From Candidatus Krumholzibacteriia bacterium (lineage in GTDB: Bacteria; Krumholzibacteriota; Krumholzibacteriia; WVZY01; JAKEHA01), in the NCBI GenBank assembly GCA_035687255.1, contig DASRYI010000344.1, forward strand, positions 1 through 60,142: 60,142 nt of DNA. The letters run 5' to 3'. The notes below the pieces were generated by a model. That model was given only the letters and a program-made list of their open reading frames with translations, had not been told where the DNA came from and ran no database searches. Below, in pieces: positions 1,275 to 16,266 of the stretch. How positions within the stretch are numbered: the stretch's first letter is position 1; each line of letters opens with the position of its first letter. Position numbers and translations under genes: made by a program.

Positions 1275-4200
1275 TTATTTCAGGAGAACCATCTTGCGTG
1301 TCAACGCCTGGGCGGGTGTGGACAGCCGGTAGAAATAGACTCCGGAGCCGACCGCACTGCCGTGCCCGTCGCGGCCGTCCCACTGCACGGAATACGCACC
1401 CGGCTTGAGGATCTGGTCGACCAGAGTGCGCACACGCGCGCCGGTGACGTCATAGATGGTGAGTGTCACGTGTGCGGCGGGCCCGGCGGCGATTTCGTAC
1501 GAGATGCGCGTCGCCGGGTTGAACGGATTGGGATAGTTCTGCGCGAGACGCGTCCGGGACGGCGCGGCTGGCGTGTCTCCGACGCCGGTTGCGACAAACG
1601 TTCCGTAGCGTCCGTTGCGCAGCACGTTTCCGTGGTACATCGGCCACGGGGCGAGCGCGGGATTGTAGGGCGTCGACAGCGACCATACGTACACGGTCTT
1701 GTCGTAACCCACCCCCACGATGTCCACCAGGCCGTCCTTGTTCAGATCGGTAATGCACGGTGTTCCGCGCACGGCGTCCTTCATGACGAGCGGGAACCCC
1801 GCCAGGGGTACACCGGTTGAACTCCATGCATTGATGAAGCGGTCCTCGTCTCCCAGCAGAACGTCGACGGACCCGTCGCCGTTCACATCCGCCACGACCG
1901 GCGATGACTCGGTGTAGGTCTTGGTGGAATAGTAAACCGGCCATCCCGGCGCTTCCGAACCGTCGTACTGAATGGCGTACAGACGTCCGTTGGACGCGGG
2001 AATGATGGTTTCCAGTTTGCCGTCACCGGTCAGGTCGGCCAGCGCGGGCGATGGATTGAAGAACAGGTTGGTGTTGATCCACGTCTGCCACAACTGGCTG
2101 CCGTCGGGGCGCAGCGCGTAGATCTCGCCGGAACTACGCGTCGTAAACGTGATGTCGAGCTGGCCGTTGTTGTCGATGTCTCCCACCGCCACGCCGCCGC
2201 CCGCGTAGTTGTTCAACTGGAACGGCCAGCCCGGCTCGTTGCCCCCCACCTCGTTGAGCACGTACACCTTCATGTCCTGCGTCGGAATGATAATTTCTTC
2301 TTTCCCGTCATTGTCGATGTCGGCCAGCGCCGGAGTCTGATACTGCCACTGGTTGGTGTCGGGCAGGCGCTTGAACACGCCGTTGGTGAGCGGGTTCGCG
2401 TCACCGTCGATCACTTCGGTTCCGTCGACGTGCCACGCATAGAGATAGGCGTCCTGGTCAACGGCGATGATCTCCGGCGAGCCATCGCCGTCGATGTCCC
2501 CGATCACAACGCTGGCGCGAACCATGTCCACCGTGTCCTGGGGCCAGCCGGGCATCACGGTCCCGTCGCCCTTGAAGCAGAACACCTGCTTCGACGTGTA
2601 GGCCGCCGCCGCAATTTCGAAACCCGGGACGCCGTCGAGATCCGCCAGCGCTGCGGGTCCGACAAAATCAGTCCCCTCAGACGAGATGGGCCCCCACGTG
2701 ATGCCTTTTTGATCGCCGTCGAGGACCTCGTCGCCGTTATCGTGCCAGGCGTAAAGCTTGTCGTTGCCCACCACCACTTCCAGCTTGCCGTAGCCGTCGA
2801 TGTCACCGACCGCCGGCGAATTGGCCGATTCATTTACCAGCTCGTTGGGCCATCCCGCCAGCTGGGGCGGATTGGTAGACGCCGGCGCCGCCGGCGAGCG
2901 AGCGCCTTCGTTGCCCGACTCGTCGACGCTGGCGATCTCATAGTAGTAGCGCGTATTCGGTGAAAGGCCGGCGTCGGTGAATACCGTGTGGCTGATCACG
3001 TCGCTGTTGGCCCGGGTGTACGGGCCGGCCAGATTGGTGGAGCGATAGATGTTGTACCCCGCCACGTCCGAGGACGCCCCCGCGGTCCACAGGATGCCCA
3101 TCTTGTCCACGCCCAGGCTGGGGTCGAAGGACTGCAGGGTCGGCGGGAGTGGTTCCCGCAACTCACAATTGTGCGTCAGGACGCGTCCGTGTGAATCGGT
3201 GACAACAACTCTGAGCGCGTTGGGAAGCGACACGTTCGCTTCGCTCAACTTGAAGGCGACCGTGTTTTCCGATGACTGCAACAGGCTGAGATTCGGATAC
3301 GTCGTGACGGTGTCGACCAGGGTCGACCCGCCGTCGAGCTCGCGCAGAACCGCCGTCAGCCCGTCGGCGCGCCCGGTTCCATAGTTCTTGACGGTGGCAT
3401 ACAGGAGAAACTGTTCGCCGTTGGTGTAGATACCGTCGCCGTTCCCGACCGGGATTTCGTCGCTCTTGCGCAGTCCCGTTACCGCAAGCCTGGGTGCGTG
3501 TACCACACGCGCGAGATTGTTTACCCAGGTCTGGCCTCCGTTGACGAGCAGCACGTTGAAGTTTGCGATGGCTTCGTCGGGCGTCGAGGCGGAGACCTGA
3601 ATGCGCCACGGGTCGGTGGCGGCGACAAGCTGGCCCGCAGCCGTCGAAGGAATGGACGCGCTGGAATCGAGCAGCGTCACCCACGGATTGGCGTTGAGGA
3701 ACGTGGCCGTCAGCGTCGGCGCCGTGGCACCTCCCAGGTTGCGCACCGCCGGTGTGAGATCGATCGTCTCTCCCGCGTCGATTACGCCGTCGCCGTTTCC
3801 GGAGGTCCCACCGGTGTTGTCATCGTCCACGGCGATCGATTCGACCGCGGGCAGCGCGGCCACCGTCGGGTTCACGGTGATGGTATCCGCGAAGTGCGTG
3901 AGGTTGAGACCGGTTCCCACCACGCTGATGGACCCCACGGTGGGCGTATTGAAATTGAACACCGCCTGCCCCGACACATTGGTCGTAACGACCTGGTAGT
4001 CCTCGGCGGTTTTCCACAGGCACACCTTGACGTTGGATCGGGGGAGTCCGTTCACCATCGCCGTTACCACAATGGAATTGCGGCCGGCGGTGACCGCCGC
4101 AGAGTGCGTGAGCACGAGATTCTCCGGCGTGGCGGTCCACATCGGCATCTCGGGGTCGGCAAGCAGTTCGTAGACGTAGTGCGTCCACAGTTCCACGTTG

Positions 4201-5990
4201 TCGGAGGCCAGCGCCAGGGGCGTGCGCTGCGCCCGGGACAACGCAAACGTCTTGCCGATGTTCACATCGTTGTTGGTGTACAACTCCTGGACGTAGTCTT
4301 CCAGGTAGTACGCCGAAACTTCCGCAAACGTGCTGTTGGTTGCGCCCAGCGCCGACACCGCACCGCCCTGCGGGTTGCGAAGCATGTGCTCCGCGAGGCA
4401 GTCGTAGTCAAACGCAGCCGCCGTACAGTTGAGCATGTAGAGATTGAAGAACTCGTCGGTGTTGTGGAGCGCATCGGCGTCCGGAATCGCCACATTGGCG
4501 TCGCCGCAGTGCATGTTGAAGCGGAACCCGTGACCGACGTGGAACACCTGGTTGTAACCCGCATTGAGCGAATCGATGGCAATTGCCCCCGATTCGTGCA
4601 CCGATCCGGGGTACAGCCATTCGGTCTCGTAGCACCGCGTTGTTATCCGCGACGGGGATGCGACGTACAACGAATTGATGTAGTTCGTGTAGTCGGCGCC
4701 ATTCTGAAGAATGGTCTGGGGCGGATCCCACGGCGAGGGAAAAAGCACCTCGGCCAGGTACAGCACTTTGTTGAGATAGTCGGTTTTGATCGGGGTTTCA
4801 TAGCGCTCGATCTTGCTTATCACGGCGTGCGCGGTGGATGTGGTGGACACGGGAAGACGGCCCACGTACACCTCGGGATACAGATCGGGGTCGTCTCCCG
4901 GCACTTCACCGAACGTGCTGTTGTGGTTCGCGTTGAAATCGCCGTCCAGTCCGGCGAAGTAGATGTCGTTGGGAATGTCGGTCCCGCCGTAGAAATACGT
5001 CGAGTACAGGTAGCGCGCGGGAATTTCCGAAGTGTCACCGCCGAGCAGCACCCACTGTACGCCCCACTTCTGATACGCATCCTGAATGAAAAAGCGCACC
5101 GTCTCCGCGCGGTCGGTTCCACGCGGGTAGTTGGCCTCGATCCACTCCACGGTCTTGACGACCGTGGGCACGCCTTTCGCTGTCTTCCACGTGGCCAGCG
5201 AATCGAACTCGGCGGCGAGCGCTTCGGTGGTAATGATCACGCACTCCACGGGACTTCCCTCGAGTGAGGGAACTCCGGTGGGCTGGAACGGACCCTGCTG
5301 CTCGCTGACGCGTATGGGCGCGTAAGCGTCGATCGCTTCCGGGTTGACCACGGACTGCCGGATCACGTCATCGATGTCGGCCACAGTTCGCGCCGTGGCG
5401 CGTCCCGCGCGCAACGCGCTCTGCATATTACCGGACGCCGTGGTTCCGATGTCGATCTGGATGTTCCCGTACAGCACCACCCGGTCGCTTTCCACCCGCA
5501 CGGGGAAGACCGCGAAACTCGCGATGCTGTAGCCGTGCCATGTGCCGGTTCCAAGGTAGCGCGCAAATTCGCCCGGGAACGTGTCTCCGGACGGTGCGGC
5601 TATGGATACGGTGGACTGCATGGCCGACGGCCTGCCCGTATCCGTGGAGGGAAGCAACATCTGCGTTTTCTTCACGGTCACGCCGTTTCCAATCACCGAT
5701 GACTGCCCGGCCGTGGCCTGCACGTCCTGCACGCTTCGCCCCGCGGGCAGCACGACGCGCACGACACGGTACGGGACGGCGGGCATGCCGACATCCTGCA
5801 GCAGAGAAAACTCCACACTTCCGCGTGACGGGAGAGAAAACGACGCCGTGCCATCCGACACGTTCATGTGAATGTCGTCGGACGACGTCGCGATGGTGAT
5901 GTGCACGTGCTCGGTGCCGGCGCGCAGCGTCAACCATGCCGAGAGGCACAGCGCGCTGGCGATGCTGAGAAAGAGAGTGAGTTTGCGCAT
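1275..5990 (-). CDS. Secreted gingipain-like peptidase C25 fused to FN3, FG-GAP/VCBS repeats and a FlgD-Ig-like C-terminal sorting domain (1571 aa)
   Basis: Signal peptide MRKLTLFLSIASALCLSAW. C25 blocks TAKGVPTVVKTVEWIE...WVLLGGDTSEIPARY, catalytic-type His in VFHVGHGFRF and Cys in LYMLNCTAAAF. FN3-like AGYNIYRS...TRYYYEIASVDESGNEG. Many GD(I/V)DGDG/DLNKDG FG-GAP-like repeats. C-terminus NYPNPFNPATRISYEI...GVYFYRL...KMVLLK. Confidence 0.8.
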   Translation of the reverse strand: MRKLTLFLSIASALCLSAWLTLRAGTEHVHITIATSSDDIHMNVSDGTASFSLPSRGSVEFSLLQDVGMPAVPYRVVRVVLPAGRSVQDVQATAGQSSVIGNGVTVKKTQMLLPSTDTGRPSAMQSTVSIAAPSGDTFPGEFARYLGTGTWHGYSIASFAVFPVRVESDRVVLYGNIQIDIGTTASGNMQSALRAGRATARTVADIDDVIRQSVVNPEAIDAYAPIRVSEQQGPFQPTGVPSLEGSPVECVIITTEALAAEFDSLATWKTAKGVPTVVKTVEWIEANYPRGTDRAETVRFFIQDAYQKWGVQWVLLGGDTSEIPARYLYSTYFYGGTDIPNDIYFAGLDGDFNANHNSTFGEVPGDDPDLYPEVYVGRLPVSTTSTAHAVISKIERYETPIKTDYLNKVLYLAEVLFPSPWDPPQTILQNGADYTNYINSLYVASPSRITTRCYETEWLYPGSVHESGAIAIDSLNAGYNQVFHVGHGFRFNMHCGDANVAIPDADALHNTDEFFNLYMLNCTAAAFDYDCLAEHMLRNPQGGAVSALGATNSTFAEVSAYYLEDYVQELYTNNDVNIGKTFALSRAQRTPLALASDNVELWTHYVYELLADPEMPMWTATPENLVLTHSAAVTAGRNSIVVTAMVNGLPRSNVKVCLWKTAEDYQVVTTNVSGQAVFNFNTPTVGSISVVGTGLNLTHFADTITVNPTVAALPAVESIAVDDDNTGGTSGNGDGVIDAGETIDLTPAVRNLGGATAPTLTATFLNANPWVTLLDSSASIPSTAAGQLVAATDPWRIQVSASTPDEAIANFNVLLVNGGQTWVNNLARVVHAPRLAVTGLRKSDEIPVGNGDGIYTNGEQFLLYATVKNYGTGRADGLTAVLRELDGGSTLVDTVTTYPNLSLLQSSENTVAFKLSEANVSLPNALRVVVTDSHGRVLTHNCELREPLPPTLQSFDPSLGVDKMGILWTAGASSDVAGYNIYRSTNLAGPYTRANSDVISHTVFTDAGLSPNTRYYYEIASVDESGNEGARSPAAPASTNPPQLAGWPNELVNESANSPAVGDIDGYGKLEVVVGNDKLYAWHDNGDEVLDGDQKGITWGPISSEGTDFVGPAALADLDGVPGFEIAAAAYTSKQVFCFKGDGTVMPGWPQDTVDMVRASVVIGDIDGDGSPEIIAVDQDAYLYAWHVDGTEVIDGDANPLTNGVFKRLPDTNQWQYQTPALADIDNDGKEEIIIPTQDMKVYVLNEVGGNEPGWPFQLNNYAGGGVAVGDIDNNGQLDITFTTRSSGEIYALRPDGSQLWQTWINTNLFFNPSPALADLTGDGKLETIIPASNGRLYAIQYDGSEAPGWPVYYSTKTYTESSPVVADVNGDGSVDVLLGDEDRFINAWSSTGVPLAGFPLVMKDAVRGTPCITDLNKDGLVDIVGVGYDKTVYVWSLSTPYNPALAPWPMYHGNVLRNGRYGTFVATGVGDTPAAPSRTRLAQNYPNPFNPATRISYEIAAGPAAHVTLTIYDVTGARVRTLVDQILKPGAYSVQWDGRDGHGSAVGSGVYFYRLSTPAQALTRKMVLLK

Positions 5991-6091
5991 GTACAGAGAT
6001 AGCCCGGCTTGGTTCGGTAGCTGCTAACTATAAGACATGACAACAGGTTGTGTCAATACGCGTCCGCGCGCCGAGGGGGATGAGAGAGGGG

Positions 6092-6121
6092 CCGGGGCGC
6101 GGCCTCATCGCCGCGCCCCGG
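6092..6121 (-). terminator. GC-rich hairpin, candidate terminator of the redoxin/DsbD_N operon
   Basis: Perfect 11-bp stem CCGGGGCGCGG/CCGCGCCCCGG with an 8-nt loop, 7 nt past the stop at 6129. No U-tract follows. Confidence 0.3.
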
Positions 6122-6128
6122 GGGATGG

Positions 6129-6791
6129 TCAGTCGGCGTACTTGACGCCGCAGCCGTATGATACCGTGGACTTGGTGGCCACGGGCTTGCCCGCCATCGA
6201 TGCATCCAGACACGCCGATACGTAGTTGTCGGCAGTGGCAATGTCCCTGGGATCGGTCGACGGCTTGTTGTCGATCGCTCCGGCGTAGATCAACACGCCC
6301 TCCGGGTTGATCACGAACATGTCGGGCGTGGTCTTGGCCCCGTACTCGCGGCCCACAGTTCCGTCCGGGTCGCGCAGATACGCGGTGGACGCAACCTTTC
6401 TTTCCTTCGTCATCTCCTGCAGTGCGGCGGGGTCGTAGTAGCCCTGTTTGCCGGCCGCCGACGAACAGATGGTGAGCCACACCACGCCCTTCTCGGTGTA
6501 CTTCTTCTGCAACGCCTGCATGTTTCCCGAGCCGTAGTGCTTCTTCACGAACGGGCAATCCAGGTTGTTCCACTCCAGCACCACGTACTTGCCCTTGAAC
6601 GCGGAGAGCGCATACTCCTTCCCGTCGATTCCCGTCAGCTTGAAATCGGGCGCCGGCTTGTCGATGGCGGCGGTCATTGCGCTTTTGGTGTCGACGCTCG
6701 GGGAATCGGCGGCGGCGAGCGGCGCCAGCGCCAGCACGGCGGCCACCCCGAGTAAGCAGGGTGCGGATGTGCGCCAGTTCATGTGTTTCAT
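6129..6791 (-). CDS. Periplasmic thioredoxin-fold protein (redoxin / AhpC-TSA-like)
   Basis: Signal peptide ...LALAPLAAADS. Motifs APDFKLTGIDGKEYALSAFKGKYVVLEWNNLDCPFVKKHY and TTPDMFVINPEGVLIYAG are typical of the redoxin fold. Only one Cys sits in the CPFV motif. Confidence 0.7.
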   Translation of the reverse strand: MKHMNWRTSAPCLLGVAAVLALAPLAAADSPSVDTKSAMTAAIDKPAPDFKLTGIDGKEYALSAFKGKYVVLEWNNLDCPFVKKHYGSGNMQALQKKYTEKGVVWLTICSSAAGKQGYYDPAALQEMTKERKVASTAYLRDPDGTVGREYGAKTTPDMFVINPEGVLIYAGAIDNKPSTDPRDIATADNYVSACLDASMAGKPVATKSTVSYGCGVKYAD

Positions 6792-6828
6792 GGACGTCCT
6801 CCTGTCAGCGTGTGTGGTGAATGTCAGG

Positions 6829-7701
6829 CTACCGGCGGCCCACCGGCACGTTGACCTCGATGGCGGCCGCTTCTCCCGTCTTGAACCCCGATGAGGCGAC
6901 CAGAAGCCCGTACGCCTGTCGCAGTTCGTCGGCGGGCATGCGCGCCCGTGTGATTCTCAATTCGTACACCGGCTGCCCACCCGGGCCGGGGTGGGTAGTC
7001 AGTATCTGTGGCGCCGCATTTTCGATGAGTCCCGGTTCATACGGAAAGAACAGCAGGCCCTCGAGCGGCGCGGGCGTGCCGGACGATTGCAGTTCCAGCA
7101 CCAGCGCATTCGCATCATCGATGTGCGCGTCCACGTTCCATTCCAGCGTGTGGCCCGGCAGACGGGCCCGCGTGGCGTCAAAGAGCGCGCGGTGTTCCAT
7201 GTCGCTGCGGGCCGCGGCTTCAACGGGAAGCCGCAGGTTCAATGACGCGGAACCCGGAACACACTCCTCCGCGCACGCCAGCCATGATACGTCCGCCGCG
7301 ATATCGACGTTCCCGCCCGGGGACAGGTTCGCCGGAACCTGCACGTCGCTCACCAGCAACACATCACCGCGGTATCCGAAAATGGCAATCGGCCCGGCCA
7401 TGATGCGGGACGGGAAGGGCCACTGCAGTACGCCCGCTTTGAAACCCTCGGGCAGTTTCCAGGCGATACTGGGCGCCAGTCCGGCGTCGCCCGGATTGAT
7501 CCAGTTGACGTGCCACCCGTCGCGCATCACCAGATGCACACCCAGGCGGAAGGGCTGTCCGGGCTGAACCGACGCCACATCGGCGATCAGCTCCGCGCGC
7601 ACCAGCACCGGCTTTTCCGCCAGCAATGGCTCCGCGGCGCGCGCGGAAGCCACCAGCAGGCTTCCGGCGAACAGGGCGGACAGCAGGCGAGCTACATACA
7701 T
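6829..7701 (-). CDS. DsbD N-terminal-domain-like (DsbD_N/DsbC-type) periplasmic thiol-disulfide protein
   Basis: ATG at 7701 gives MYVARLLSALFAGSLLVASARA (signal). Motifs FRLGVHLVMRDGWHVNWINPGDAGLAPSIAW and VSWLACAEECVPG (Cys pair) match the DsbD alpha-domain pattern. The upstream 10 codons of the listed ORF are probably not translated. Confidence 0.65.
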   Translation of the reverse strand: MYVARLLSALFAGSLLVASARAAEPLLAEKPVLVRAELIADVASVQPGQPFRLGVHLVMRDGWHVNWINPGDAGLAPSIAWKLPEGFKAGVLQWPFPSRIMAGPIAIFGYRGDVLLVSDVQVPANLSPGGNVDIAADVSWLACAEECVPGSASLNLRLPVEAAARSDMEHRALFDATRARLPGHTLEWNVDAHIDDANALVLELQSSGTPAPLEGLLFFPYEPGLIENAAPQILTTHPGPGGQPVYELRITRARMPADELRQAYGLLVASSGFKTGEAAAIEVNVPVGRR

Positions 7702-7884
7702 GTGAATGGATTTTTCGGACTGAAGCACCACCGCGTAATCATAGTCGCTGCAACGCTCAAGAGCAATTTCGGCATAGAAGATCGGAAATCCGAAATTCGT
7801 CTTGACAATCCGGAGTATTTTGTCGGAAATTGGTGGTGAACATCAGCAACCAAGACCGCGAAAATCGCGCGGCATCCTTCCACA

Positions 7885-9396
7885 ATGGTCGCAAAAATCA
7901 GACTCCCAAGGCTTTTCTACAACACGATCAGTATCATCGGCGGTGCCATGACCCTCGTGGTCGGCGGCACCCTGGTGTCGTTCCTGATCGTGATGGCGTC
8001 GTTCGGCAAGGAAAACCCCTATCTGGGGATTTTCGTCTACATGGTTCTGCCCGTCATGCTGGCGATCAGCGTGGTACTCATCCCCATCGGGATGCTTCGC
8101 CGCCGCCGCCGCATCAAGCAGCACAAGGACGACCTTCCACCCCAGTTGCCCCAGCTCGATCTCAACAAGCCGACGCATCGCAACGCGCTGATCGTCGTCC
8201 TGCTGGTGACGGGCCTGGTGTCCATCGTCACCGTGGTCGGCGGTTACCAGGCGTATCACTACACGGAGTCCGTCGAGTTCTGCGGAAAGACCTGTCATAC
8301 GGTGATGAAGCCGGAATACACCGCCTACGGCAATTCGCCGCACGCGCGCGTGTCGTGTGCGCAGTGTCACGTCGGAGCCGGCGCCGACTGGTACGTGAAA
8401 TCCAAGTTGTCGGGCTCGTATCAGGTGTATGCGGCCACGTTCAACAAGTACCCGCGGCCCATCCCGACGCCCATCAGGAACCTGCGCCCGGCGCAGGAAA
8501 CCTGCGAGCAGTGCCACTGGCCGGAGAAGTTCTTCGGCGCCCAGCAGCGCCAGTTCAATCACTACATGTACGACGATTCGACCACGCACTGGCCGATCAA
8601 TCTGCTCATCAAGGTGGGCGGTGGTGATCCCAAGACCGGCCAGACGGCGGGCATCCACTGGCACATGAACATCGGCGCCAAGGTTGAGTACATTGCGCGC
8701 GACGAGAAGCGCCAGGATATCCCGTGGATCCGCGTGACGGAGAAAACCACGGGACGCGTCACCGTCTACCAGGATGAGGATAATCCGCTGACTCCGGAAG
8801 AAATCGCCGCCGCGACGCCGCGGCGCATGGACTGCATGGACTGCCACAACCGGCCCAGCCACAAGTTCCATTCACCGGACTACGTGATCGATCAGGCGAT
8901 TCTTACGGGCAAGATCAGCCAGACGCTGCCCGCGATCAAACGCATCGCCGTGGAGTCGATGGCGGGGAACTACGCCACGGAGGACGAGGCCATGCGCGGG
9001 ATCGCGTCGAAGATTCCCGCCGCGTATCGCAAGGATTTCCCCGACGTGTTCGCGAAGCGCCAGGTGGATATCGACGCCGCCGTGGTCGCCACGCAGCAGG
9101 AATTTTCGCAGAACATGTTTCCGGAGATGAAGGTGACGTGGGAGGGCTATCCCGACAACATCGGTCACTTTATCTACCCGGGATGTTTCCGCTGCCACAA
9201 CGGCAAGAAGAAGAGCGAAGAGGGATGGACCATCTCGCGCAACTGCACCACGTGTCACATCATTCTTCGTCAGGGTGCCGGCGAGCAGATGGAGATGGCA
9301 ATGTCGGAACAGGGGCTTGAGTTCAAGCACCCGGACGGCGGCGACGACTGGCGGGACACCGATTGCTATGAGTGCCACACGGGGACCCAGCCCTGA
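7885..9396 (+). CDS. Membrane-anchored heptahaem cytochrome c, NapC/NirT/NrfH-like
   Basis: Three N-terminal hydrophobic helices, then 7 CxxCH (CGKTCH, CAQCH, CEQCH, CMDCH, CFRCH, CTTCH, CYECH). The first block FCGKTCH...YGNSPHARVSCAQCH resembles quinol-dehydrogenase NapC/NirT proteins. Confidence 0.85.
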   Translation: MVAKIRLPRLFYNTISIIGGAMTLVVGGTLVSFLIVMASFGKENPYLGIFVYMVLPVMLAISVVLIPIGMLRRRRRIKQHKDDLPPQLPQLDLNKPTHRNALIVVLLVTGLVSIVTVVGGYQAYHYTESVEFCGKTCHTVMKPEYTAYGNSPHARVSCAQCHVGAGADWYVKSKLSGSYQVYAATFNKYPRPIPTPIRNLRPAQETCEQCHWPEKFFGAQQRQFNHYMYDDSTTHWPINLLIKVGGGDPKTGQTAGIHWHMNIGAKVEYIARDEKRQDIPWIRVTEKTTGRVTVYQDEDNPLTPEEIAAATPRRMDCMDCHNRPSHKFHSPDYVIDQAILTGKISQTLPAIKRIAVESMAGNYATEDEAMRGIASKIPAAYRKDFPDVFAKRQVDIDAAVVATQQEFSQNMFPEMKVTWEGYPDNIGHFIYPGCFRCHNGKKKSEEGWTISRNCTTCHIILRQGAGEQMEMAMSEQGLEFKHPDGGDDWRDTDCYECHTGTQP

Positions 9397-12178
9397 GCGT
9401 AACTGGCGCGCGGCTGTGCCGCGCTGGTGGATACTTGTTCTCCTTGGCCTGCTTTGCATCGTCACGCCCCCACCGGTGCCCTCCGCCGCCGCGGGTGGCG
9501 ATCACGAAACCTGTCTTGAGTGTCACGGCGAACGCGACGACGAAACTCCCTTCGTCGATGCAAAGCTGTTCCGCGCATCCGTGCACCGCGATCTCGACTG
9601 CTCGGACTGCCACGACGACGTGGATCCGGACGATCTCCCGCACCCCGAGCCCCTCAAACCCGTCAAGTGCGGCACCTGCCACGATGACGAACAACTCGAC
9701 TTCGACGCCAGCATCCACGGGCAGGCGCTGAACCGGCACGAACCGTACGCCCCGTCCTGCAAGGAATGCCACGGGGTGCACGACATCCTCTCGCCGAAAA
9801 ACGAACGCGCGCCCACCTACAAGATGAACGTGCCGTTCCTGTGCGGCAGGTGCCACCGTGAAGGCGCACCGGTTGCAAGCACCTACAACATTTCGGAACA
9901 CAACATCCTCGAGAATTACAGCGAGAGCATTCACGGTGAGGGGCTGTTCAAGAAGGGACTCACCGTGGCCGCGGCCTGTGCCGACTGCCACCGCGCCCAC
10001 CTGATTCTTCCGCACACCGACCCGCGCGCGTCCATCTCGCCGCGCAACATCACGAAGACGTGCATGCAGTGCCATGCCAAGATCGAACAGGTGCACACCA
10101 AGGTCATCCGCGGCGAATTGTGGGAAAAGGCGCCCGGCGCCATTCCCGCGTGCACGGACTGCCATGTTCCGCATCGCGTGCGCAAGGAGATCACGACGCT
10201 GACGATCTCGGACAACAGCTGCATGGCCTGCCATGAAAAACAGGGACTGGTCAGTACCGCGCACGGGGACACGCTCACCGTCGACCGCAACGAGCTGGCC
10301 ATGTCGACGCACAAGAACATTCCGTGCGTAAAATGTCACAGCGACGTCGACCCGCGCCGGCACCGCCCCTGCGAAACCGCGGGAAAGGTGGATTGTTCGA
10401 ACTGCCACCAGAAAATATCCGAGGAATACGCGGTCAGCGGGCACGGACAGGCGCATGCGAAGGGCGTCCCGCAGGCGCCCTACTGCACCACCTGTCACGG
10501 TACGCACGGTGTGCGTCCGCATGTCGACGAAACGTCACCCACGTACCGCGCCAATGTGCCTTCGCTGTGCGGCGGCTGCCATCGGACGGAGGGCAAGGCC
10601 CCGCAGGTGGCGCACCTTTCGGAAGTCTCGGCGTTCACGGACTATTCGAAGAGCGTGCACGGGCGCGCGCTGACGGAGAAGGGACTGCTGCCGAGCGCCG
10701 TGTGCATCGACTGCCACTCGTCACACATGATTCTCAAGCACACCGACGAGCGCTCCACGGTGTCACACGAGAACCTGCCCGCTACCTGCGCCACGTGCCA
10801 CCGTGGCATCTACAAGGAGTACATCAAGAGCGTCCATTATTCGCCGGACGCAAAGGACTCGGCCAAGCTTCCCAACTGTGCGAACTGTCATTCGTCCCAC
10901 ACCATCGGGGACGTCAAGCAGGACGCGTTCCTCACCCAGGTGACGGGGCAGTGCGGTTCGTGCCACCAGGAACTCGGTAAGACGTATCTCGAAACCATGC
11001 ACGGCAAGGCGTACCGCCTGGGATACCTGAAGGCGGCCAAGTGTTCCGACTGTCACGGCGCGCACGAGATTCTCGCCGTCGACAATCCCAACTCGTCGGT
11101 GGGGCACCGCAATATCGTGGCCACCTGTCGCAAGTGCCATCCCGACGCCAACGCCCGGTTCACCGGCTATCTGACGCACGCCACGCACCACGACCCGAAG
11201 AAGTATCCGCTCCTGTTCTATTCGTACTGGGCGATGACGTTCCTGCTCATCGGGGTGTTTGCGTTCTTCGGGCTGCACACGGCACTGTGGTTGCCGCGGT
11301 CGTTCCGGCACATGATCGAGCACCGGCAGCACGCGAAGAAACATCCGCATGCGTACTACATCCGGCGCTTCACGCGCGCGCAGCGTTTGACGCACATCTT
11401 CGTCATCAGCAGCTTCCTCCTGCTGGCGCTGACCGGAATGATGCTGAAATTCTCGCACATGACATGGGCCACGTTCCTGGCCAACGCGCTGGGAGGCGTC
11501 AAGGTGGCGGGTGTGCTGCACCGCATCGCCGCGGTCACCACCTTCGGTTACTTCACGTTCCACATCTTTTCGTTGGTGCGCATGAAACGGACGCGGCACA
11601 TGGCGTGGCGTGAATTGTTGTTCGGCCCGGGCTCGCTGATGTTCAACCGCAAGGATATCTCCGACTTCATCGGAACGTTGAAGTGGTTCTTCGGGGCGGG
11701 CCCGCGTCCCCCCTACGGGCGCTGGACCTACTGGGAGAAGTTCGATTATCTGGCGGTGTTCTGGGGCGTGGCGGTAATCGGGTTTACCGGCCTGATGCTG
11801 TGGTTGCCCGTGATGTTCACGCGCGTCCTGCCGGGGTGGCTCATCAATGTGGCCACGATCATCCACAGTGACGAGGCGCTGTTGGCCGTCGGATTCATAT
11901 TCACCATCCATTTCTTCAACACACACCTGCGTCCCGAGGCGTTCCCCATGGACACGGTCGTGTTCACCGGACTGACGCCGTTAGAGGACTACATCAAGGA
12001 CCGTCCGGAAGAATACGAGGCCATGAAGCGCTCGGGTGAGCTGCGCCGCCGTCTCGTCAAGGCGAACCTGTCGCGGCGCTGGATGACCACAGTGTACGTG
12101 TTCGGGTCCCTCTTCCTTGTTGTCGGTCTGATTCTGATCGGACTGATCATCTACTCCATGATCTTCGGTTACCGGTAG
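9368..12178 (+). CDS. 19-haem cytochrome c fused to a C-terminal FdnI/HydC/PhsC-like b-type cytochrome membrane domain (CbcL-like architecture)
   Basis: I counted 19 CxxCH, from CLECH to CRKCH. About six hydrophobic helices follow, with conserved His (LTHIF, VLHRI, IIHSDE, FTIHFFNTH). The start is ambiguous: ATG 9368 overlaps the upstream gene by 29 nt, and GTG 9416 gives MPRWWILVLLGLL. Confidence 0.85.
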   Translation: MSATRGPSPERNWRAAVPRWWILVLLGLLCIVTPPPVPSAAAGGDHETCLECHGERDDETPFVDAKLFRASVHRDLDCSDCHDDVDPDDLPHPEPLKPVKCGTCHDDEQLDFDASIHGQALNRHEPYAPSCKECHGVHDILSPKNERAPTYKMNVPFLCGRCHREGAPVASTYNISEHNILENYSESIHGEGLFKKGLTVAAACADCHRAHLILPHTDPRASISPRNITKTCMQCHAKIEQVHTKVIRGELWEKAPGAIPACTDCHVPHRVRKEITTLTISDNSCMACHEKQGLVSTAHGDTLTVDRNELAMSTHKNIPCVKCHSDVDPRRHRPCETAGKVDCSNCHQKISEEYAVSGHGQAHAKGVPQAPYCTTCHGTHGVRPHVDETSPTYRANVPSLCGGCHRTEGKAPQVAHLSEVSAFTDYSKSVHGRALTEKGLLPSAVCIDCHSSHMILKHTDERSTVSHENLPATCATCHRGIYKEYIKSVHYSPDAKDSAKLPNCANCHSSHTIGDVKQDAFLTQVTGQCGSCHQELGKTYLETMHGKAYRLGYLKAAKCSDCHGAHEILAVDNPNSSVGHRNIVATCRKCHPDANARFTGYLTHATHHDPKKYPLLFYSYWAMTFLLIGVFAFFGLHTALWLPRSFRHMIEHRQHAKKHPHAYYIRRFTRAQRLTHIFVISSFLLLALTGMMLKFSHMTWATFLANALGGVKVAGVLHRIAAVTTFGYFTFHIFSLVRMKRTRHMAWRELLFGPGSLMFNRKDISDFIGTLKWFFGAGPRPPYGRWTYWEKFDYLAVFWGVAVIGFTGLMLWLPVMFTRVLPGWLINVATIIHSDEALLAVGFIFTIHFFNTHLRPEAFPMDTVVFTGLTPLEDYIKDRPEEYEAMKRSGELRRRLVKANLSRRWMTTVYVFGSLFLVVGLILIGLIIYSMIFGYR

Positions 12179-13387
12179 GTTGTGGGCGTAAGATTGTCCC
12201 TACGAGTGACAGAGAAGTCGGGGCAGTAGCAAAATCGTCATCCGCGTTCCTCTAGAATGCGTAGCGAAGGTGGTGTGTGCGGTTGACGGAAAGCGCCGCC
12301 GTGCGAACCTCCCGCCGGTAGTAGCCCTGCCAGCGCGGTGAGAGCTCGATCTTGTCGAAGAACAGGCGCTCCTTGAGCAGATCCCGAACTCGCCAGGGCC
12401 GCGTTGTCAGTCCCAGAATCATCGCCGGCGTGACGCGCGCGCCCTTTTCCCGGCGTTTCTTCATGTAATTTCTCCAGACCTGGAAGATGGCCAGCTTTTC
12501 GATGGAGGCTTGCCGGCGCTTCGCCCAGGCGATGGTCTCGCGCTTGTGGGCCGCGGTACTGTGGCGGATCATCAAGTCCAGAAGATTGACCTCCCAGAGC
12601 GGATTGCGCCGGTCACGCCGGCGCTTTGACGACGTGATGCGGTGCGTGACGCTGCGCTCTAAAGCGGCGATGGCACGAGGGTAGGCGCGGTGGTCATCGC
12701 TCCGAATAACTCGAGATGAAATGGGAGTGAGAAGATCTCGCATGCCGTCTTCGACCGCTCGCGAGGGAGCACACCCGAACGCCTCCTCAAGCTGGTATCG
12801 GCGGGCCTTTTGACTCGCTCGCATGCGTCCCTTGCGACGGAGTGGACTATCAGTGTGATAGAGAAAGTATCCCGAGTCCACGGCCACCGCCACATTGTGG
12901 TGGAACGGAAAGTACTGGCTCCATTCGAATGTCTCGAATCCATCGATGGCGATCTCGTTGATTACGGCAATGCGATGGAGCTCCCGGGCCTGAGTGAGCA
13001 GGCAGTGGCGCCCCAGACGGGCGACCTGGTGTGCCACCGTCTCTGGGCTGCAGCGCAGCGCACGGGAGATCTGGCGGTTGCCCATGCATCCGACCACCAT
13101 CATGACGATGCGCGGGATGAGGTCAGGGCGTTTTTGCCAGTATGACGTCGAGAAGGTCTGCGTACTGAAGTGACGGCGACATGCCAGACATGTAAACCGC
13201 TGGATACGAGTGGGTGCGGCCCGGCGCGTGTAGAAGCCCTTACGTTTGTAGGGCCACTCACGAGAAAACGCGGTGAAATAGCAGCAGTTCGGGTTGGGGC
13301 AATGTGGGGGCACCCATTCTACCTCTCTTGCTCCCATGTACCGGCCCAGGCACACAGCGTGCCAGGGCCAATTTCATGGCCACAACC
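12178..13387 (-). mobile_element. IS1-family insertion sequence (~1.21 kb, single-ORF type)
   Basis: Imperfect terminal inverted repeats: 12178-12201 GGTTGTGGGCGTAAGATTGTCCCT versus the reverse complement of 13364-13387 GGTTGTGGCCATGAAATTGGCCCT (19/24 identical). Both begin GGnnnTG as in IS1. They enclose one transposase ORF. No target-site duplication was seen. Confidence 0.6.
12252..13355 (-). CDS. IS1-family DDE transposase (zinc finger + HTH + DDE)
   Basis: N-terminal Cys clusters CPNPNCCYF...FTCLACRRHF. HTH NRQISRALRCSPETVAHQVARL. DDE-like blocks IAIDGFETF, IRSDDHRAYPRAI, LWEVNLLDLMIRHSTAAHKRETIAW, which parallel IS1 InsB EMDEQW / MTDGWPLY / IERHNLNLRQHL. An alternative start is ATG 13337. 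Confidence 0.7.
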   Translation of the reverse strand: MCLGRYMGAREVEWVPPHCPNPNCCYFTAFSREWPYKRKGFYTRRAAPTRIQRFTCLACRRHFSTQTFSTSYWQKRPDLIPRIVMMVVGCMGNRQISRALRCSPETVAHQVARLGRHCLLTQARELHRIAVINEIAIDGFETFEWSQYFPFHHNVAVAVDSGYFLYHTDSPLRRKGRMRASQKARRYQLEEAFGCAPSRAVEDGMRDLLTPISSRVIRSDDHRAYPRAIAALERSVTHRITSSKRRRDRRNPLWEVNLLDLMIRHSTAAHKRETIAWAKRRQASIEKLAIFQVWRNYMKKRREKGARVTPAMILGLTTRPWRVRDLLKERLFFDKIELSPRWQGYYRREVRTAALSVNRTHHLRYAF

Positions 13388-13424
13388 AAAAAAGAGGACG
13401 CGTTCGTAAGAACGCGTCCTCTTA
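13386..13424 (-). terminator. Rho-independent terminator of the minus-strand cytochrome operon
   Basis: Perfect 14-bp stem AAGAGGACGCGTTC/GAACGCGTCCTCTT with a GTAA loop. On the minus strand a run of six U follows (A-run 13388-13393, overlapping the base of the stem). It lies 32 nt after the stop at 13456. Confidence 0.7.
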
Positions 13425-13455
13425 TCCTGTCCCGTTCCAGATATCGAAGCGAGCA

Positions 13456-14040
13456 CTAGCCTCCGCTCTTGTACTTGGCTTTGCGCTCTTCCGGAATCGG
13501 ATGTGCGATGGCCGCTTTGGCCTTCGCGAAGTCAAACCCGGTGAATGTCGGGCTCTCTTTATTGTGACACTTCTCGCAGGTTGCCTGGTCGGGCATGTTC
13601 AGCCCCACCGACGCCTTCTCGATGGTTCCCGAGATGAGACCCTCCATGGTGGACTTCTTGATGTAGTCCGCGCCCGCGCCGTGACACGATTCGCAACCGA
13701 CACCGTCCTTGATGGAGTATTTCACTCCAACCATGCTGGTATCCACGCCGGCAGCGGTGACGTGGCACTTCAGGCAGTCCATTGACTTCTGCGGATCCGC
13801 AATGCCCTTGGCCTTGGCGATCTCCAGCGCCTTCGGGCTGGCCAGCGCCTCGTACGCCTTCGAGTGCTTGCTGGCCTGCCACTTCGGGTACTGCTCGCCC
13901 GCCGTCGCCGTCTTGTGGCAAACCGCGCACTTGGCTGTGCCTACAAACTTGTGCTCCGCCGCGCCCGCCACGACGCTGTACGCGAGCAAGCAGGCGCCCG
14001 CAATCAGCAGGGTGATGCTGGCGCCACCAGATCGTCTCAT
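13456..14040 (-). CDS. Periplasmic tetrahaem cytochrome c
   Basis: Signal peptide MRRSGGASITLLIAGACLLAYSVVAGAA. Four CxxCH (CAVCH, CLKCH, CESCH, CEKCH). AAGGAG RBS upstream. Confidence 0.85.
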   Translation of the reverse strand: MRRSGGASITLLIAGACLLAYSVVAGAAEHKFVGTAKCAVCHKTATAGEQYPKWQASKHSKAYEALASPKALEIAKAKGIADPQKSMDCLKCHVTAAGVDTSMVGVKYSIKDGVGCESCHGAGADYIKKSTMEGLISGTIEKASVGLNMPDQATCEKCHNKESPTFTGFDFAKAKAAIAHPIPEERKAKYKSGG

Positions 14041-14133
14041 GCCTGTCTCCTTTCAACCTGCGGCCCACACCGTCTTCAAAGCGACCATGTTAAGCCCCAA
14101 AGGGCGTTTTTCCAATACATTCCTGTATACAAC

Positions 14134-16266
14134 TCAAGGACTCTTTTTTCGCCCATCGTGTTTGCTTCCCGCGGGAGCCGCAGGCGTTTCCGTGGCAACG
14201 ATTTCCGCGTCTCCTTTTTCCGCATATTCCCCGGCGTGGAATTCCTGCCATTCGTGGACCGGCATACGGCCCGTGATCCATGTGGTGCTCATCGGATAGA
14301 CGACCGGGAGCACAATCACGAAGAAGAAGTGCCATATGAAGATCGCCGAAACCGCCAGAATCGCTTCATAGAAGTGGACGGTTTCGGAAACGCGCACAAT
14401 CCAGGCGGGGAAGAGGTGTGTCGCCACCGTGGGGAACCACAGGACCAGTCCCGTCAGGGCCATCACCCATGTGCCCCAGACCAGCGCCCAGTACTCGGCC
14501 TTCTGTGTGTAGTCAAAGGTCCGGAAGGCGGGGCGCGACCGCCGCCAGCCCACGTGATACGCCATGTTCTCGAACGCGTGGCGGACATCGTGCGCGCCGG
14601 GCGCCATCCCGCGCAGTGCGCTGCGCCCGCGGCGGGCCGCCAGCATCCAGATGCTGTGGTAGATGGCGGTGACGATCAGCAGTACGCCGAATGTGCGGTG
14701 CAGATTGGCGCGGACGCCCTCATGACCCCCCAGCCGTATCAATCGCACCCACCATGCCGTGGGGAAGCGGAGCGCAAAGCCGGTGATGGCCAGTCCCGCG
14801 AACGTGAGGAACAGAACCATGTGCTGCACGGTCTCGGCGCGGTACCAGCGCTGTATGTACGGTTCGCTGCGCACGTGCGCAAAGTGCCGCTTCATTTCGT
14901 AGCGCGCGATCAGCGCGTTGTGGAGTCCCATGCCGCCCAGCACGACGGCGATCAGCCACAGGTACAGCTTGCGTACCCACGCGCTGGGTCCACGCGGTTC
15001 GAGGGCGGCGGCGTGAGTGTAGCTCTGTGCAAACGTCGCGGTCGCATCGGGGTGACAGCGTTGGCAGGTATGCACGACGTTGGCCGGATTCACGGTGGAC
15101 AGCGAGTCCAGGGGACTGCGGATGTCGTGGACGGTGTGGCAGTCGGTGCAGTTGGCAACCAGATCGCTGCCGCGTGACATGGCCCATCCGTGGTAGCTGT
15201 CCAGGTAACTTTCCACCACACCCGGCATAATCCCGTATCTGGAGACCAGTTCGGGATTCGTGTGGCAGTCTCCACACAGTTCGCGCGCGCGATTCTCGGG
15301 GTTGATGGCTGCCGTCGGGTCCTGGGGTTTTTTGATGAGATGTTCGTTGTGGCAGTCGATGCACGTCGGTGCATCGTGAATACCGACGGCCACCGCCCGG
15401 CCGTGGATGGATGACTCGTACTCGGTGGCGATCTTCTCGTGGCAATGGCCGCAGGTGCTGGCCACGTTGGCCCGGTTGATGTGCGCCTTCGGATCGGACG
15501 GAAGACGCGAGTCGTGCGAGCCGTGACAGTCGGTGCACACAGCGGTCCGCTTGCCCTCTTTCCATCCCTCGCCGTGGACGGACGCCAGATAGGCGGGCAC
15601 CACCACCGGCAGGCGTACGAAATACTTCGTCAACGGCGCCTGTTTCTCATGGCACCCGCCGCACGTCTTCGGTACATTGCGCGGATTCACGGGTGAGGTG
15701 GTATCTGCCACCGCGACGATATGGTGGCTTCCGTGACACGTTCCACAGGTGGCGGCGCCGCCGTTCTGCCGGCGCCCGAGCCTGTGGACGCTGGTGGCGT
15801 ACTCCACCTCTTCCTTTTCGTGGCAGTTGCCGCAGGCGTACAGCGGTTCGGTGTGACCGTTTCCGCGCGGGTGAATGGTGTGGCAGGATGTGCACGACAT
15901 CTTGCCGCTCGCAAAGAGCGGATCGTGAACAGATCCCTTGAACGTCTCCCGGACGTCGTCGTGACATGATGTGCAGTCGACCTTTGTGTACTTCTTGAAA
16001 TGGGGGACGTCTTCGTAGTCGCCGGGCGCGGAATGGCAGTCGACGCAATCCAGGTCACCGTGCTGCCCGGCGTGAAACGTCTTCGCGACGATCCCGATCA
16101 GCCGGCCCTTGTCCGAGCGCATGCCGGCGTCGTCGTGACAGTCCAGACAGTCCTGAGTGGTGACCTGGGATAAAGCCGGGGTCGCCGCGCACAACGTGAG
16201 CGCAAGAACGGCGACCCCGATGAGGTCTCCGGGCACGGAGACACGCGAACCAGAGGGGTTTGCCAT
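14134..16266 (-). CDS. 13-haem cytochrome c fused to an FdnI/HydC-like b-type cytochrome membrane domain (paralogous architecture to 9368-12178)
   Basis: Signal peptide. I counted 13 CxxCH, from CLDCH to CQRCH. Hydrophobic helices follow, with His (GLHNAL, MVLFLTFAGLAITGF, NLHRTF, YHSIW, VHFYEAILAVSAIFIWHFF). Confidence 0.85.
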   Translation of the reverse strand: MANPSGSRVSVPGDLIGVAVLALTLCAATPALSQVTTQDCLDCHDDAGMRSDKGRLIGIVAKTFHAGQHGDLDCVDCHSAPGDYEDVPHFKKYTKVDCTSCHDDVRETFKGSVHDPLFASGKMSCTSCHTIHPRGNGHTEPLYACGNCHEKEEVEYATSVHRLGRRQNGGAATCGTCHGSHHIVAVADTTSPVNPRNVPKTCGGCHEKQAPLTKYFVRLPVVVPAYLASVHGEGWKEGKRTAVCTDCHGSHDSRLPSDPKAHINRANVASTCGHCHEKIATEYESSIHGRAVAVGIHDAPTCIDCHNEHLIKKPQDPTAAINPENRARELCGDCHTNPELVSRYGIMPGVVESYLDSYHGWAMSRGSDLVANCTDCHTVHDIRSPLDSLSTVNPANVVHTCQRCHPDATATFAQSYTHAAALEPRGPSAWVRKLYLWLIAVVLGGMGLHNALIARYEMKRHFAHVRSEPYIQRWYRAETVQHMVLFLTFAGLAITGFALRFPTAWWVRLIRLGGHEGVRANLHRTFGVLLIVTAIYHSIWMLAARRGRSALRGMAPGAHDVRHAFENMAYHVGWRRSRPAFRTFDYTQKAEYWALVWGTWVMALTGLVLWFPTVATHLFPAWIVRVSETVHFYEAILAVSAIFIWHFFFVIVLPVVYPMSTTWITGRMPVHEWQEFHAGEYAEKGDAEIVATETPAAPAGSKHDGRKKSP

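Follow-up and report, generated by a model that had tools for sequence, protein, structure and literature searches.

The CbcL/MtrH/MtoC family comprises inner-membrane cytochromes in which a periplasmic multihaem c-type domain is fused to a b-type cytochrome. A survey of this family listed homologues from 15 phyla, with 416–1034 amino acids, 3–23 CxxCH motifs, mostly six transmembrane helices and conserved histidines (Zhong & Shi 2018, PMC6295460). Table S2 of that survey includes about 16 proteins of 913–952 amino acids that have 19 motifs with the same spacing as the protein described below. Their hosts are Caldithrix abyssi, Marinifilaceae, Marinilabiliales, Salinivirgaceae, Ignavibacteria, Gemmatimonadetes, Handelsmanbacteria, Syntrophaceae and a marine sediment metagenome; a few further entries were counted as having 20 motifs and one as having 23. 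The periplasmic domain of CbcL is reported to contain nine low-spin bis-His haems, to be largely disordered and to reduce PpcA (PMC9129911). Here we examined a gene at 9368..12178 (+) in a stretch of 60,142 nucleotides (the window) from a Candidatus Krumholzibacteriia bacterium (assembly GCA_035687255.1, contig DASRYI010000344.1, positions 1 to 60,142). Its product is in all likelihood an inner-membrane bc-type cytochrome of the CbcL/MtrH/MtoC family which probably transfers electrons between menaquinol and periplasmic cytochromes.

A conserved gene with 19 haem motifs

An open reading frame (ORF) runs uninterrupted from 9275 to 12178 (+), and its ATG at 9368 gives a protein of 936 amino acids with the stop codon at 12176-12178. 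As judged by this frame, the CxxCH count and full-length homologues, the gene is complete and encodes a 19-haem c-type cytochrome fused to a dihaem cytochrome b. There are exactly 19 CxxCH motifs, all between residues 49 and 591, while a motif scan of the 936 residues found no CX3CH or CX4CH. A preliminary description of this DNA, made from the letters alone, had given the same frame and motif count, and the three peptides it quoted as examples are all present in the protein. Close homologues, the nearest being 82% identical, share an N-terminus of the form MSAT/MNAT...PSPD, after which come a hydrophobic stretch and a site resembling AxA. Since the same N-terminus is kept, the ATG at 9368 is likely the real start, and the hydrophobic stretch and AxA-like site suggest a signal peptide. 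On our reading, a signal peptide or N-terminal anchor would occupy residues 1-42 (9368..9493, +), with the hydrophobic core WWILVLLGLLCIV and A-A-A before G43, the predicted cleavage position; hydropathy analysis marked a segment at residues 14-42. The public gene call (P0001, 900 amino acids) begins 36 codons downstream of this ATG, so that the signal peptide is lost. This start appears to be too late, as the N-termini of homologues favor 9368.

The architecture is widely conserved. In a search of a collection of 5.8 billion proteins, the best 120 matches were 61-82% identical and about 925 amino acids long. Exactly 19 CxxCH motifs were present in 117 of the 120, with the other three being shorter. 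Of 201 genomes sampled from the same phylum, 124 gave a match, and the top matches among these were mostly full length. When 29 loci were fetched, 28 showed the 19 motifs at near-invariant spacing and the exception ends at a contig edge; several of the orthologue loci lie on long or single-contig records. Besides the CxxCH motifs, about 20 further histidines are invariant among 45 homologues. These comparisons indicate that the 19-haem form is a conserved and widespread orthologue group with homologues in several phyla. It is hardly credible that the gene is a decaying pseudogene or that a frameshift or assembly join has artificially fused two genes, and nothing was found that speaks for either. 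The frame is single and open, all ligands are invariant, and the 19-haem-plus-b architecture recurs in the 117 homologues and 28 loci, many of the latter on long or single-contig records. A frameshift or assembly join, which the preliminary description had named as a possible refutation, can be excluded because homologues and loci share the whole architecture.

The C-terminal cytochrome b domain

The membrane domain was assigned to residues 612-936 (11201..12175, +) from AlphaFold2 secondary structure and hydropathy. The model places helices at 614-658, 670-694, 711-743, 788-812, 823-853 and 903-934, three of which are also picked up by hydropathy. This helix pattern matches that of the CbcL homologues in Table S2 of PMC6295460, and the loop charges, as read from the sequence, fit the positive-inside rule for a periplasmic N-terminal domain. 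The membrane part consists of an extra helix, a four-helix core like that of FdnI and another extra helix, as described for CbcL.

The core, an FdnI-like four-helix dihaem cytochrome b, was located at residues 662-888 (11351..12031, +) by hhalign, Foldseek and invariant histidines. When a family profile of 94 b domains was compared with Escherichia coli FdnI by hhalign, the probability was 97.7% with an E value of 1.7e-12 over 202 columns, and H18, H57, H155 and H169 of FdnI aligned with H676, H718, H833 and H848. The FdnI residues are reportedly the ligands of its cytoplasmic- and periplasmic-side b-haems (Jormakka et al. 2002). All four counterparts are invariant in the 45 homologues, and we regard H676/H848 and H718/H833 as candidate ligands of the cytoplasmic-side and the periplasmic-side haem, respectively. 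The best PDB match of the AlphaFold2 model found by Foldseek was FdnI (1kqf_C; probability 1.00, target-normalised TM-score 0.77, rmsd 3.7 Å). The preliminary description had likened the C-terminal region to the polytopic, His-bearing domains of formate dehydrogenase gamma and HydC, and suggested AlphaFold and Foldseek as a check; the six helices and the match to 1kqf_C bear this out. The invariant segment R785-W-T-Y-W-E-K-F-D-Y794 is the most conserved motif of the b core. The FdnI segment aligned with it lines the pocket for menaquinone and 2-heptyl-4-hydroxyquinoline N-oxide (HQNO), and by this analogy the quinone site may lie near the motif, beside the cytoplasmic-side b-haem.

A homologue of FdnI could in principle act as membrane subunit for a formate dehydrogenase or for a hydrogenase. 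The automatic name given by the Joint Genome Institute (JGI), 'cytochrome b subunit of formate dehydrogenase', would agree with this, as would the weak matches to TIGR01583 (E 1.5e-4) and PF01292. Nevertheless, FdnG/FdnH or hydrogenase genes are not adjacent to the gene in the window or in the loci L001-L003, the N-terminal 19-haem domain takes the place of a catalytic partner, and the nearest relatives are fusions of the CbcL/MtoC type. We thus consider such a subunit very improbable; the JGI name reflects only the fold.

Family membership

The protein shows the features by which the CbcL/MtrH/MtoC family is recognized, namely an N-terminal periplasmic domain with multiple CxxCH motifs, a six-helix C-terminal region and a HydC/FdnI-like b domain with ligand histidines. 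Sequence similarity to the family was seen with L046, a CbcL-clade protein from Deltaproteobacteria bacterium RBG_16_49_23, which is collinear with residues 296-932 at 35% identity (E 2e-123). L046 matches OGP74219.1, an entry beside GSU0274 in Table S2 of PMC6295460, in length and haem positions. A scan with a CbcL-like alignment returned at least 80 loci from metagenome-assembled genomes of Desulfobacterota, with no Geobacter among the matches listed. The collinearity with L046 agrees with the earlier remark that the protein follows the same logic as CbcL.

Several observations weigh against this assignment and the function proposed for it. The comparison with CbcL was made through L046, a clade proxy for GSU0274, and through published positions. 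The protein scores below the cut-off of PF01292 (Ni_hydr_CYTB / prokaryotic cytochrome b561), with 23.8 against 30.1 bits (22.7 bits on DNA). A phmmer search of the C-terminal domain against PDB sequences gave no match, and the family profile searched against the PDB retrieved only fragments of c-type cytochromes (NrfB, MtrA-like) and not FdnI. The AlphaFold2 model is haem-free and of moderate quality, with a mean pLDDT of 68, although values in the membrane domain are mostly about 65-85. In addition, there is no outer-membrane conduit within the window, and our literature searches found no experimental study of any member of the 19-haem subgroup. Because the Pfam cut-off and the PDB sequence searches fail, the homology with FdnI rests on profile-profile comparison and structure. 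The test against PF01292 proposed in the preliminary description therefore gave a divided answer, in that the protein itself falls short while a paralogue encoded downstream passes (40.2 bits against 30.1) and the FdnI profile and fold match. Many orthologues carry a precomputed PF01292 match.

The number of haems is not exceptional. A search with the b domain of 1.84 billion cluster representatives found 2416 relatives. Among the best 150 of these, the fusions had 2-22 haems, the commonest numbers being 9 and 11, and 19 occurred in three clusters; low counts among the representatives are in part due to truncated fragments. This survey of haem counts, which the preliminary description had recommended, places 19 haems at the high end of the range, yet such a count is not rare, and it is no record either. 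The earlier claim of an unusual haem number fails, since homologues with 19 motifs were already tabulated in PMC6295460 beside one with 23, and 124 of the 201 genomes sampled from the phylum have a match. Literature searches for 19-haem proteins of this kind, and for this phylum together with CbcL or ImcH, yielded nothing about the subgroup apart from the 2018 survey.

Internal repeats and the origin of the 19 haems

The spacing of the haem motifs is 29,23,30,28,45,28,30,23 followed by 35,23,30,28,45,28,30,25,30,28. The internal repetition evident in these numbers is real but hierarchical. At the lowest level are five dihaem modules of about 60 amino acids (n = 5) with the form S/T-x-H-G...CxxCH..H...N/R-(V/I/L)-P..CxxCH. 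Delimited by a shuffle test and hhalign, these are U1 (residues 110-170; 9695..9877), U2 (183-243; 9914..10096), U3 (352-412; 10421..10603), U4 (425-485; 10640..10822) and U5 (538-598; 10979..11161), all on the + strand. The scores of their pairwise alignments lie 5-15 standard deviations above those of shuffles in which the Cys and His of the motifs (the CxxCH letters) were fixed, and the modules are thus alike beyond what the fixed Cys/His positions give. Pairwise hhalign probabilities were 97.8-99.9%, compared with 0.1% for a negative control. Pfam PF09699 (Paired_CXXCH_1) reached 58.9 bits over three stretches against a gathering cut-off of 20.6, with one match at residues 124-166 in U1. 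The modules hold 10 of the 19 haems and the remaining nine lie between them. The tandem paired-CxxCH units of the preliminary description therefore exist, but the domain is not a simple dihaem array.

The strongest repeat is a block of about 242 amino acids with eight haems. Copy A at residues 71-300 (9578..10267, +) and copy B at residues 313-546 (10304..11005, +) are 37% identical over 234 columns (BLAST E 7e-52), and the comparison of profiles cut from the alignment of 45 homologues gave an hhalign probability of 100% with an E value of 8e-55. A BLAST comparison of the whole protein with itself returned only the diagonal, and the repeat emerged after the protein was split. There is also a sub-repeat of four haems, with haems 2-5 matching haems 16-19 (hhalign 99.2%).

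Relatives with 11 haems suggest how these blocks came about. Cluster representatives P0126, P0128, P0130 and P0131 have a spacing of the form 37,23,29,28,45,28,27,25,30,28 and are collinear with residues 277/282-932/934 at 40-46% identity. Their counterpart here is an 11-haem unit comprising haems 9-19 (residues ~281-598; 10208..11161, +). A relative with 22 haems, P0133, contains the 11-haem pattern twice (11 + 11). Because the 11-haem relatives align to about 280-932 and P0133 repeats their pattern, the 19-haem protein is best read as 8 + 11, that is, an 11-haem unit with a second copy of the unit's first eight haems in front of it. We propose that an 11-haem ancestor underwent tandem duplication of its first eight haems. 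Copying of the 8-haem block appears to be the dominant and most recent event. In a tree of b domains labelled by haem count, the 19-haem proteins fall within a well-supported clade that includes 11-haem proteins; we did not rely on this tree, which cannot date gains or losses since many cluster representatives are N-terminally truncated fragments. The earlier suggestion of expansion by internal duplication, and its call for a significance test of the repeats, are well served by these BLAST and hhalign results and the 11-haem relatives. It erred in the unit, as the latest expansion seems to have copied an 8-haem block rather than a dihaem module.

The gene neighborhood

The gene directly upstream (7885..9396, +; 503 amino acids) has a NapC/NirT Pfam match, and its 3' end, with the stop at 9396, shares 29 nucleotides with the start of the 19-haem gene. 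Its product has transmembrane helices at 14-42, 44-73 and 97-123, a CX3CH motif (CGKTCH) at 133 and CX2CH motifs at 158, 207, 317, 434, 454 and 494. These are the characteristics of the ImcH family, which has three N-terminal transmembrane helices, an atypical CX3CH by the third helix, six CX2CH motifs and a length of about 495-519 amino acids. They nearly coincide with those of GSU3259, where the motifs are at 132, 156, 205, 311, 428, 448 and 486 and the helices at 13-35, 45-67 and 100-122. The product appears to be a homologue of the ImcH-type heptahaem quinol oxidase, an assignment made by comparing motif and helix positions (PMC6295460 Table S3). An ImcH-type gene lies directly upstream in 14 of 20 other loci whose proteins are at least 60% identical. 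The text of PMC6295460 makes no mention of this tight pairing of imcH with a cbcL-like gene.

A convergent gene (13456..14040, -) encodes a tetrahaem cytochrome c554-like protein (PF13435, 68.8 bits), a possible periplasmic partner. It is also found in L001, L002 and L003, and a c554-like gene is nearby in 11 other loci. Around orthologues at about 50% identity, neither the ImcH-type nor the c554-like gene is present within 1.5 kb. Next comes a 13-haem paralogous b-fusion (14134-16266, -). Aligning it with the 19-haem protein, as the preliminary description had advised, gave 30% identity over the whole b domain (E 5e-82). This paralogue is the one that passes PF01292; its TIGR01583 match has an E value of 2.6e-13, and it is syntenic in L002 with Rieske/cytochrome b genes. 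Further downstream in the window are a Rieske/cytochrome b complex and then a nonahaem cytochrome.

Two features of the neighborhood are recorded here in their own right. An ORF of 367 amino acids (12252-13355, -) with weak, sub-threshold similarity to IS1 and ISL3 transposases (34.7 bits) separates the end of the 19-haem gene from the convergent c554-like gene, and a perfect 14-nucleotide hairpin (13392-13423) follows just past it. L002, which is from the same genus, has the same gene order without the IS1-like ORF between the convergent units. The ORF looks like a recent insertion because L002 has just about 120 nucleotides there. In L001 (CP070677.1, labelled Candidatus Latescibacterota, from a genome of the same taxonomic order), genes at 6440-8391 for a four-cluster ferredoxin (241 amino acids) and an NrfD-family membrane protein (403 amino acids) directly precede the ImcH-type and 19-haem genes, constituting a third type of quinone-interacting module in the operon.

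Proposed function

We propose the following model. A Sec signal would export the N-terminal ~570 residues to the periplasm, where 19 c-haems would be attached at the CxxCH motifs. These haems are probably all bis-His ligated, since about as many further histidines are invariant. One helix would bring the chain back to the cytoplasm, the four-helix FdnI-type bundle would bind two b-haems, with H718/H833 for the one close to the periplasm and H676/H848 for the one close to the cytoplasm, and the sixth helix would end the protein. With 2 b-haems and 19 c-haems, the single polypeptide would then be a wire that connects the menaquinone pool to the periplasm. By analogy with FdnI, menaquinol would be oxidised, or quinone reduced, beside the cytoplasmic-side b-haem. 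From the c-haem chain, electrons could pass on to periplasmic or outer-membrane cytochromes, with the c554-like protein as a candidate partner. The 19-haem protein would be co-expressed with the ImcH-type quinol oxidase of the overlapping gene.

The direction of electron flow is a separate matter. The FdnI core normally reduces menaquinone in formate dehydrogenase N (Fdh-N), and its fold and ligands are conserved here. The protein could accordingly be a quinone reductase that moves electrons from periplasmic or extracellular donors such as Fe(II) to the menaquinone pool, as proposed for MtoC of bacteria that oxidise Fe(II). Family members are known from Fe(III) reducers as well as from Fe(II) oxidisers, and their sequences contain no feature that tells one direction from the other (PMC6295460). 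On the other hand, there are no mtoAB-like genes nearby, and the gene overlaps that of an ImcH homologue, a group for which quinol oxidation is the only role implicated to date (PMC6295460). The island's Rieske/cytochrome b complex and its additional multihaem cytochromes are compatible with either direction. We regard quinone reduction as unlikely, and menaquinol oxidation for anaerobic or extracellular respiration as the most likely direction. Should the quinol site face the cytoplasm, as it does in FdnI, the membrane potential would assist electrons on their way outward, and this would suit low-potential acceptors. Such a role was found for CbcL in Geobacter (PMC5322298, PMC9129911).

The length of the haem chain raises the question of how far it reaches. 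The ten haems of MtrA span about 8 nm. The haem count here is about twice that of MtrA, and a straight row of 19 haems could extend over roughly 15 nm. This would allow for a rigid wire that spans the periplasm and touches an outer-membrane conduit, perhaps in a supercomplex with the ImcH-type protein, such that soluble shuttles are unneeded. The strictly conserved spacing of the 8-haem extension is in line with this idea, and the overlap with the ImcH-type gene suggests coupled translation. However, the periplasmic domain of CbcL is described as disordered for the most part and as working with the soluble PpcA (PMC9129911), and the conserved small tetrahaem c554-like neighbor here resembles a soluble partner. 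Moreover, the adjacency to ImcH is absent in orthologues of about 50% identity and apparently also in Caldithrix abyssi (Cabys_319 versus Cabys_1801). A rigid spanning wire is thus quite doubtful. It is likewise a long shot that the ImcH-type and 19-haem proteins form an inner-membrane supercomplex with an arm that spans most of the periplasm and is plugged into an outer-membrane conduit. If true, the supercomplex would be a hard-wired connection that runs from the inner membrane out to the outer one without soluble shuttles.

Other multihaem genes in the genome

The same genome contains 16 multihaem ORFs. On contig C352, an ORF of 1078 amino acids (11257-14493, +; locus L115) has 42 CxxCH motifs, or about one per 26 amino acids. 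With 19 separate Paired_CXXCH_1 stretches (586 bits), it is a true tandem array of dihaem modules. Upstream of it are genes for an NHL-repeat protein, two 6-haem cytochromes of 395 amino acids each, a 541-residue protein without a Pfam match and two CsgG/LpoB-like lipoproteins. This locus may be an outer-membrane or extracellular electron conduit. The 541-residue protein did not match the 527-residue protein encoded between multihaem genes of the syntenic L002. On contig C208 (locus L116), adjacent overlapping ORFs at 4023-5519 (-) and 5516-7279 (-) have 19 and at least 20 CxxCH motifs, respectively; the second reaches the contig end, and an ORF of 695 amino acids without a Pfam match adjoins.

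Comparison with known systems

Earlier publications already cover the architecture, its distribution over several phyla and even the variant with 19 motifs, and the 19-haem protein joins a tabulated subgroup. As a discovery it carries little weight and is ordinary rather than exceptional. The protein does illustrate that the haem number in this family grows by tandem copying of multi-haem blocks (8 + 11, 11 + 11) laid over older dihaem modules. The gene is common and strongly conserved in this candidate phylum and occurs in others, and it would be a reasonable subject for work on what certain bacteria gain from a wire of double the length of CbcL's.

The closest described proteins are the 19-motif homologues of PMC6295460, such as Cabys_319 of Caldithrix abyssi (WP_006928296.1, 920 amino acids) and ALGA_0747 of Marinifilaceae bacterium SPP2 (BAX79136.1, 932 amino acids). 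Their motifs are spaced 37,23,30,28,45,28,30,23,37,23,30,28,45,28,30,25,30,28, the first spacing here being 29 instead of 37, and they likewise have six transmembrane helices in the same relative positions. The present protein belongs to the same orthologue group. It differs from Caldithrix in that the ImcH-type gene overlaps here, whereas Cabys_319 and Cabys_1801 are apparently apart, as judged by their locus tags.

CbcL of Geobacter sulfurreducens (GSU0274) shares the layout in which a periplasmic multihaem c domain precedes six transmembrane helices with an FdnI/HydC-type dihaem b cytochrome, and its last spacings (...29,28,43,28) resemble the 30,28,45,28 seen here. It is smaller, with 9 haems and 619 amino acids compared with 19 haems and 936 amino acids. 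For CbcL, the oxidation of menaquinol to serve acceptors of -0.1 V or lower is a tested function, whereas the role here is predicted. In this clade the gene is physically coupled to that of an ImcH homologue, while in Geobacter ImcH and CbcL are alternative, potential-specific routes, and cbcL is presumably not adjacent to imcH there.

MtoC and MtrH, from Betaproteobacteria that oxidise Fe(II) or reduce Fe(III), belong to the same fusion family, and in the b domain the identity to MtoC-like cluster representatives with 9 haems is about 38%. MtoC and MtrH contain 9 haems, their genes accompany the porin-cytochrome genes mtoAB/mtrAB, and quinone reduction has been proposed for them. E. coli FdnI (PDB 1KQF chain C) resembles the membrane core in its four-helix bundle and four His ligands for two b-haems, and by analogy the quinone site would be beside the cytoplasmic-side haem in both. 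FdnI has no c-haem domain, is without the first and sixth helices and is 17-19% identical; the His-His spacing in the last core helix is 14 in FdnI and 15 in the 19-haem protein.

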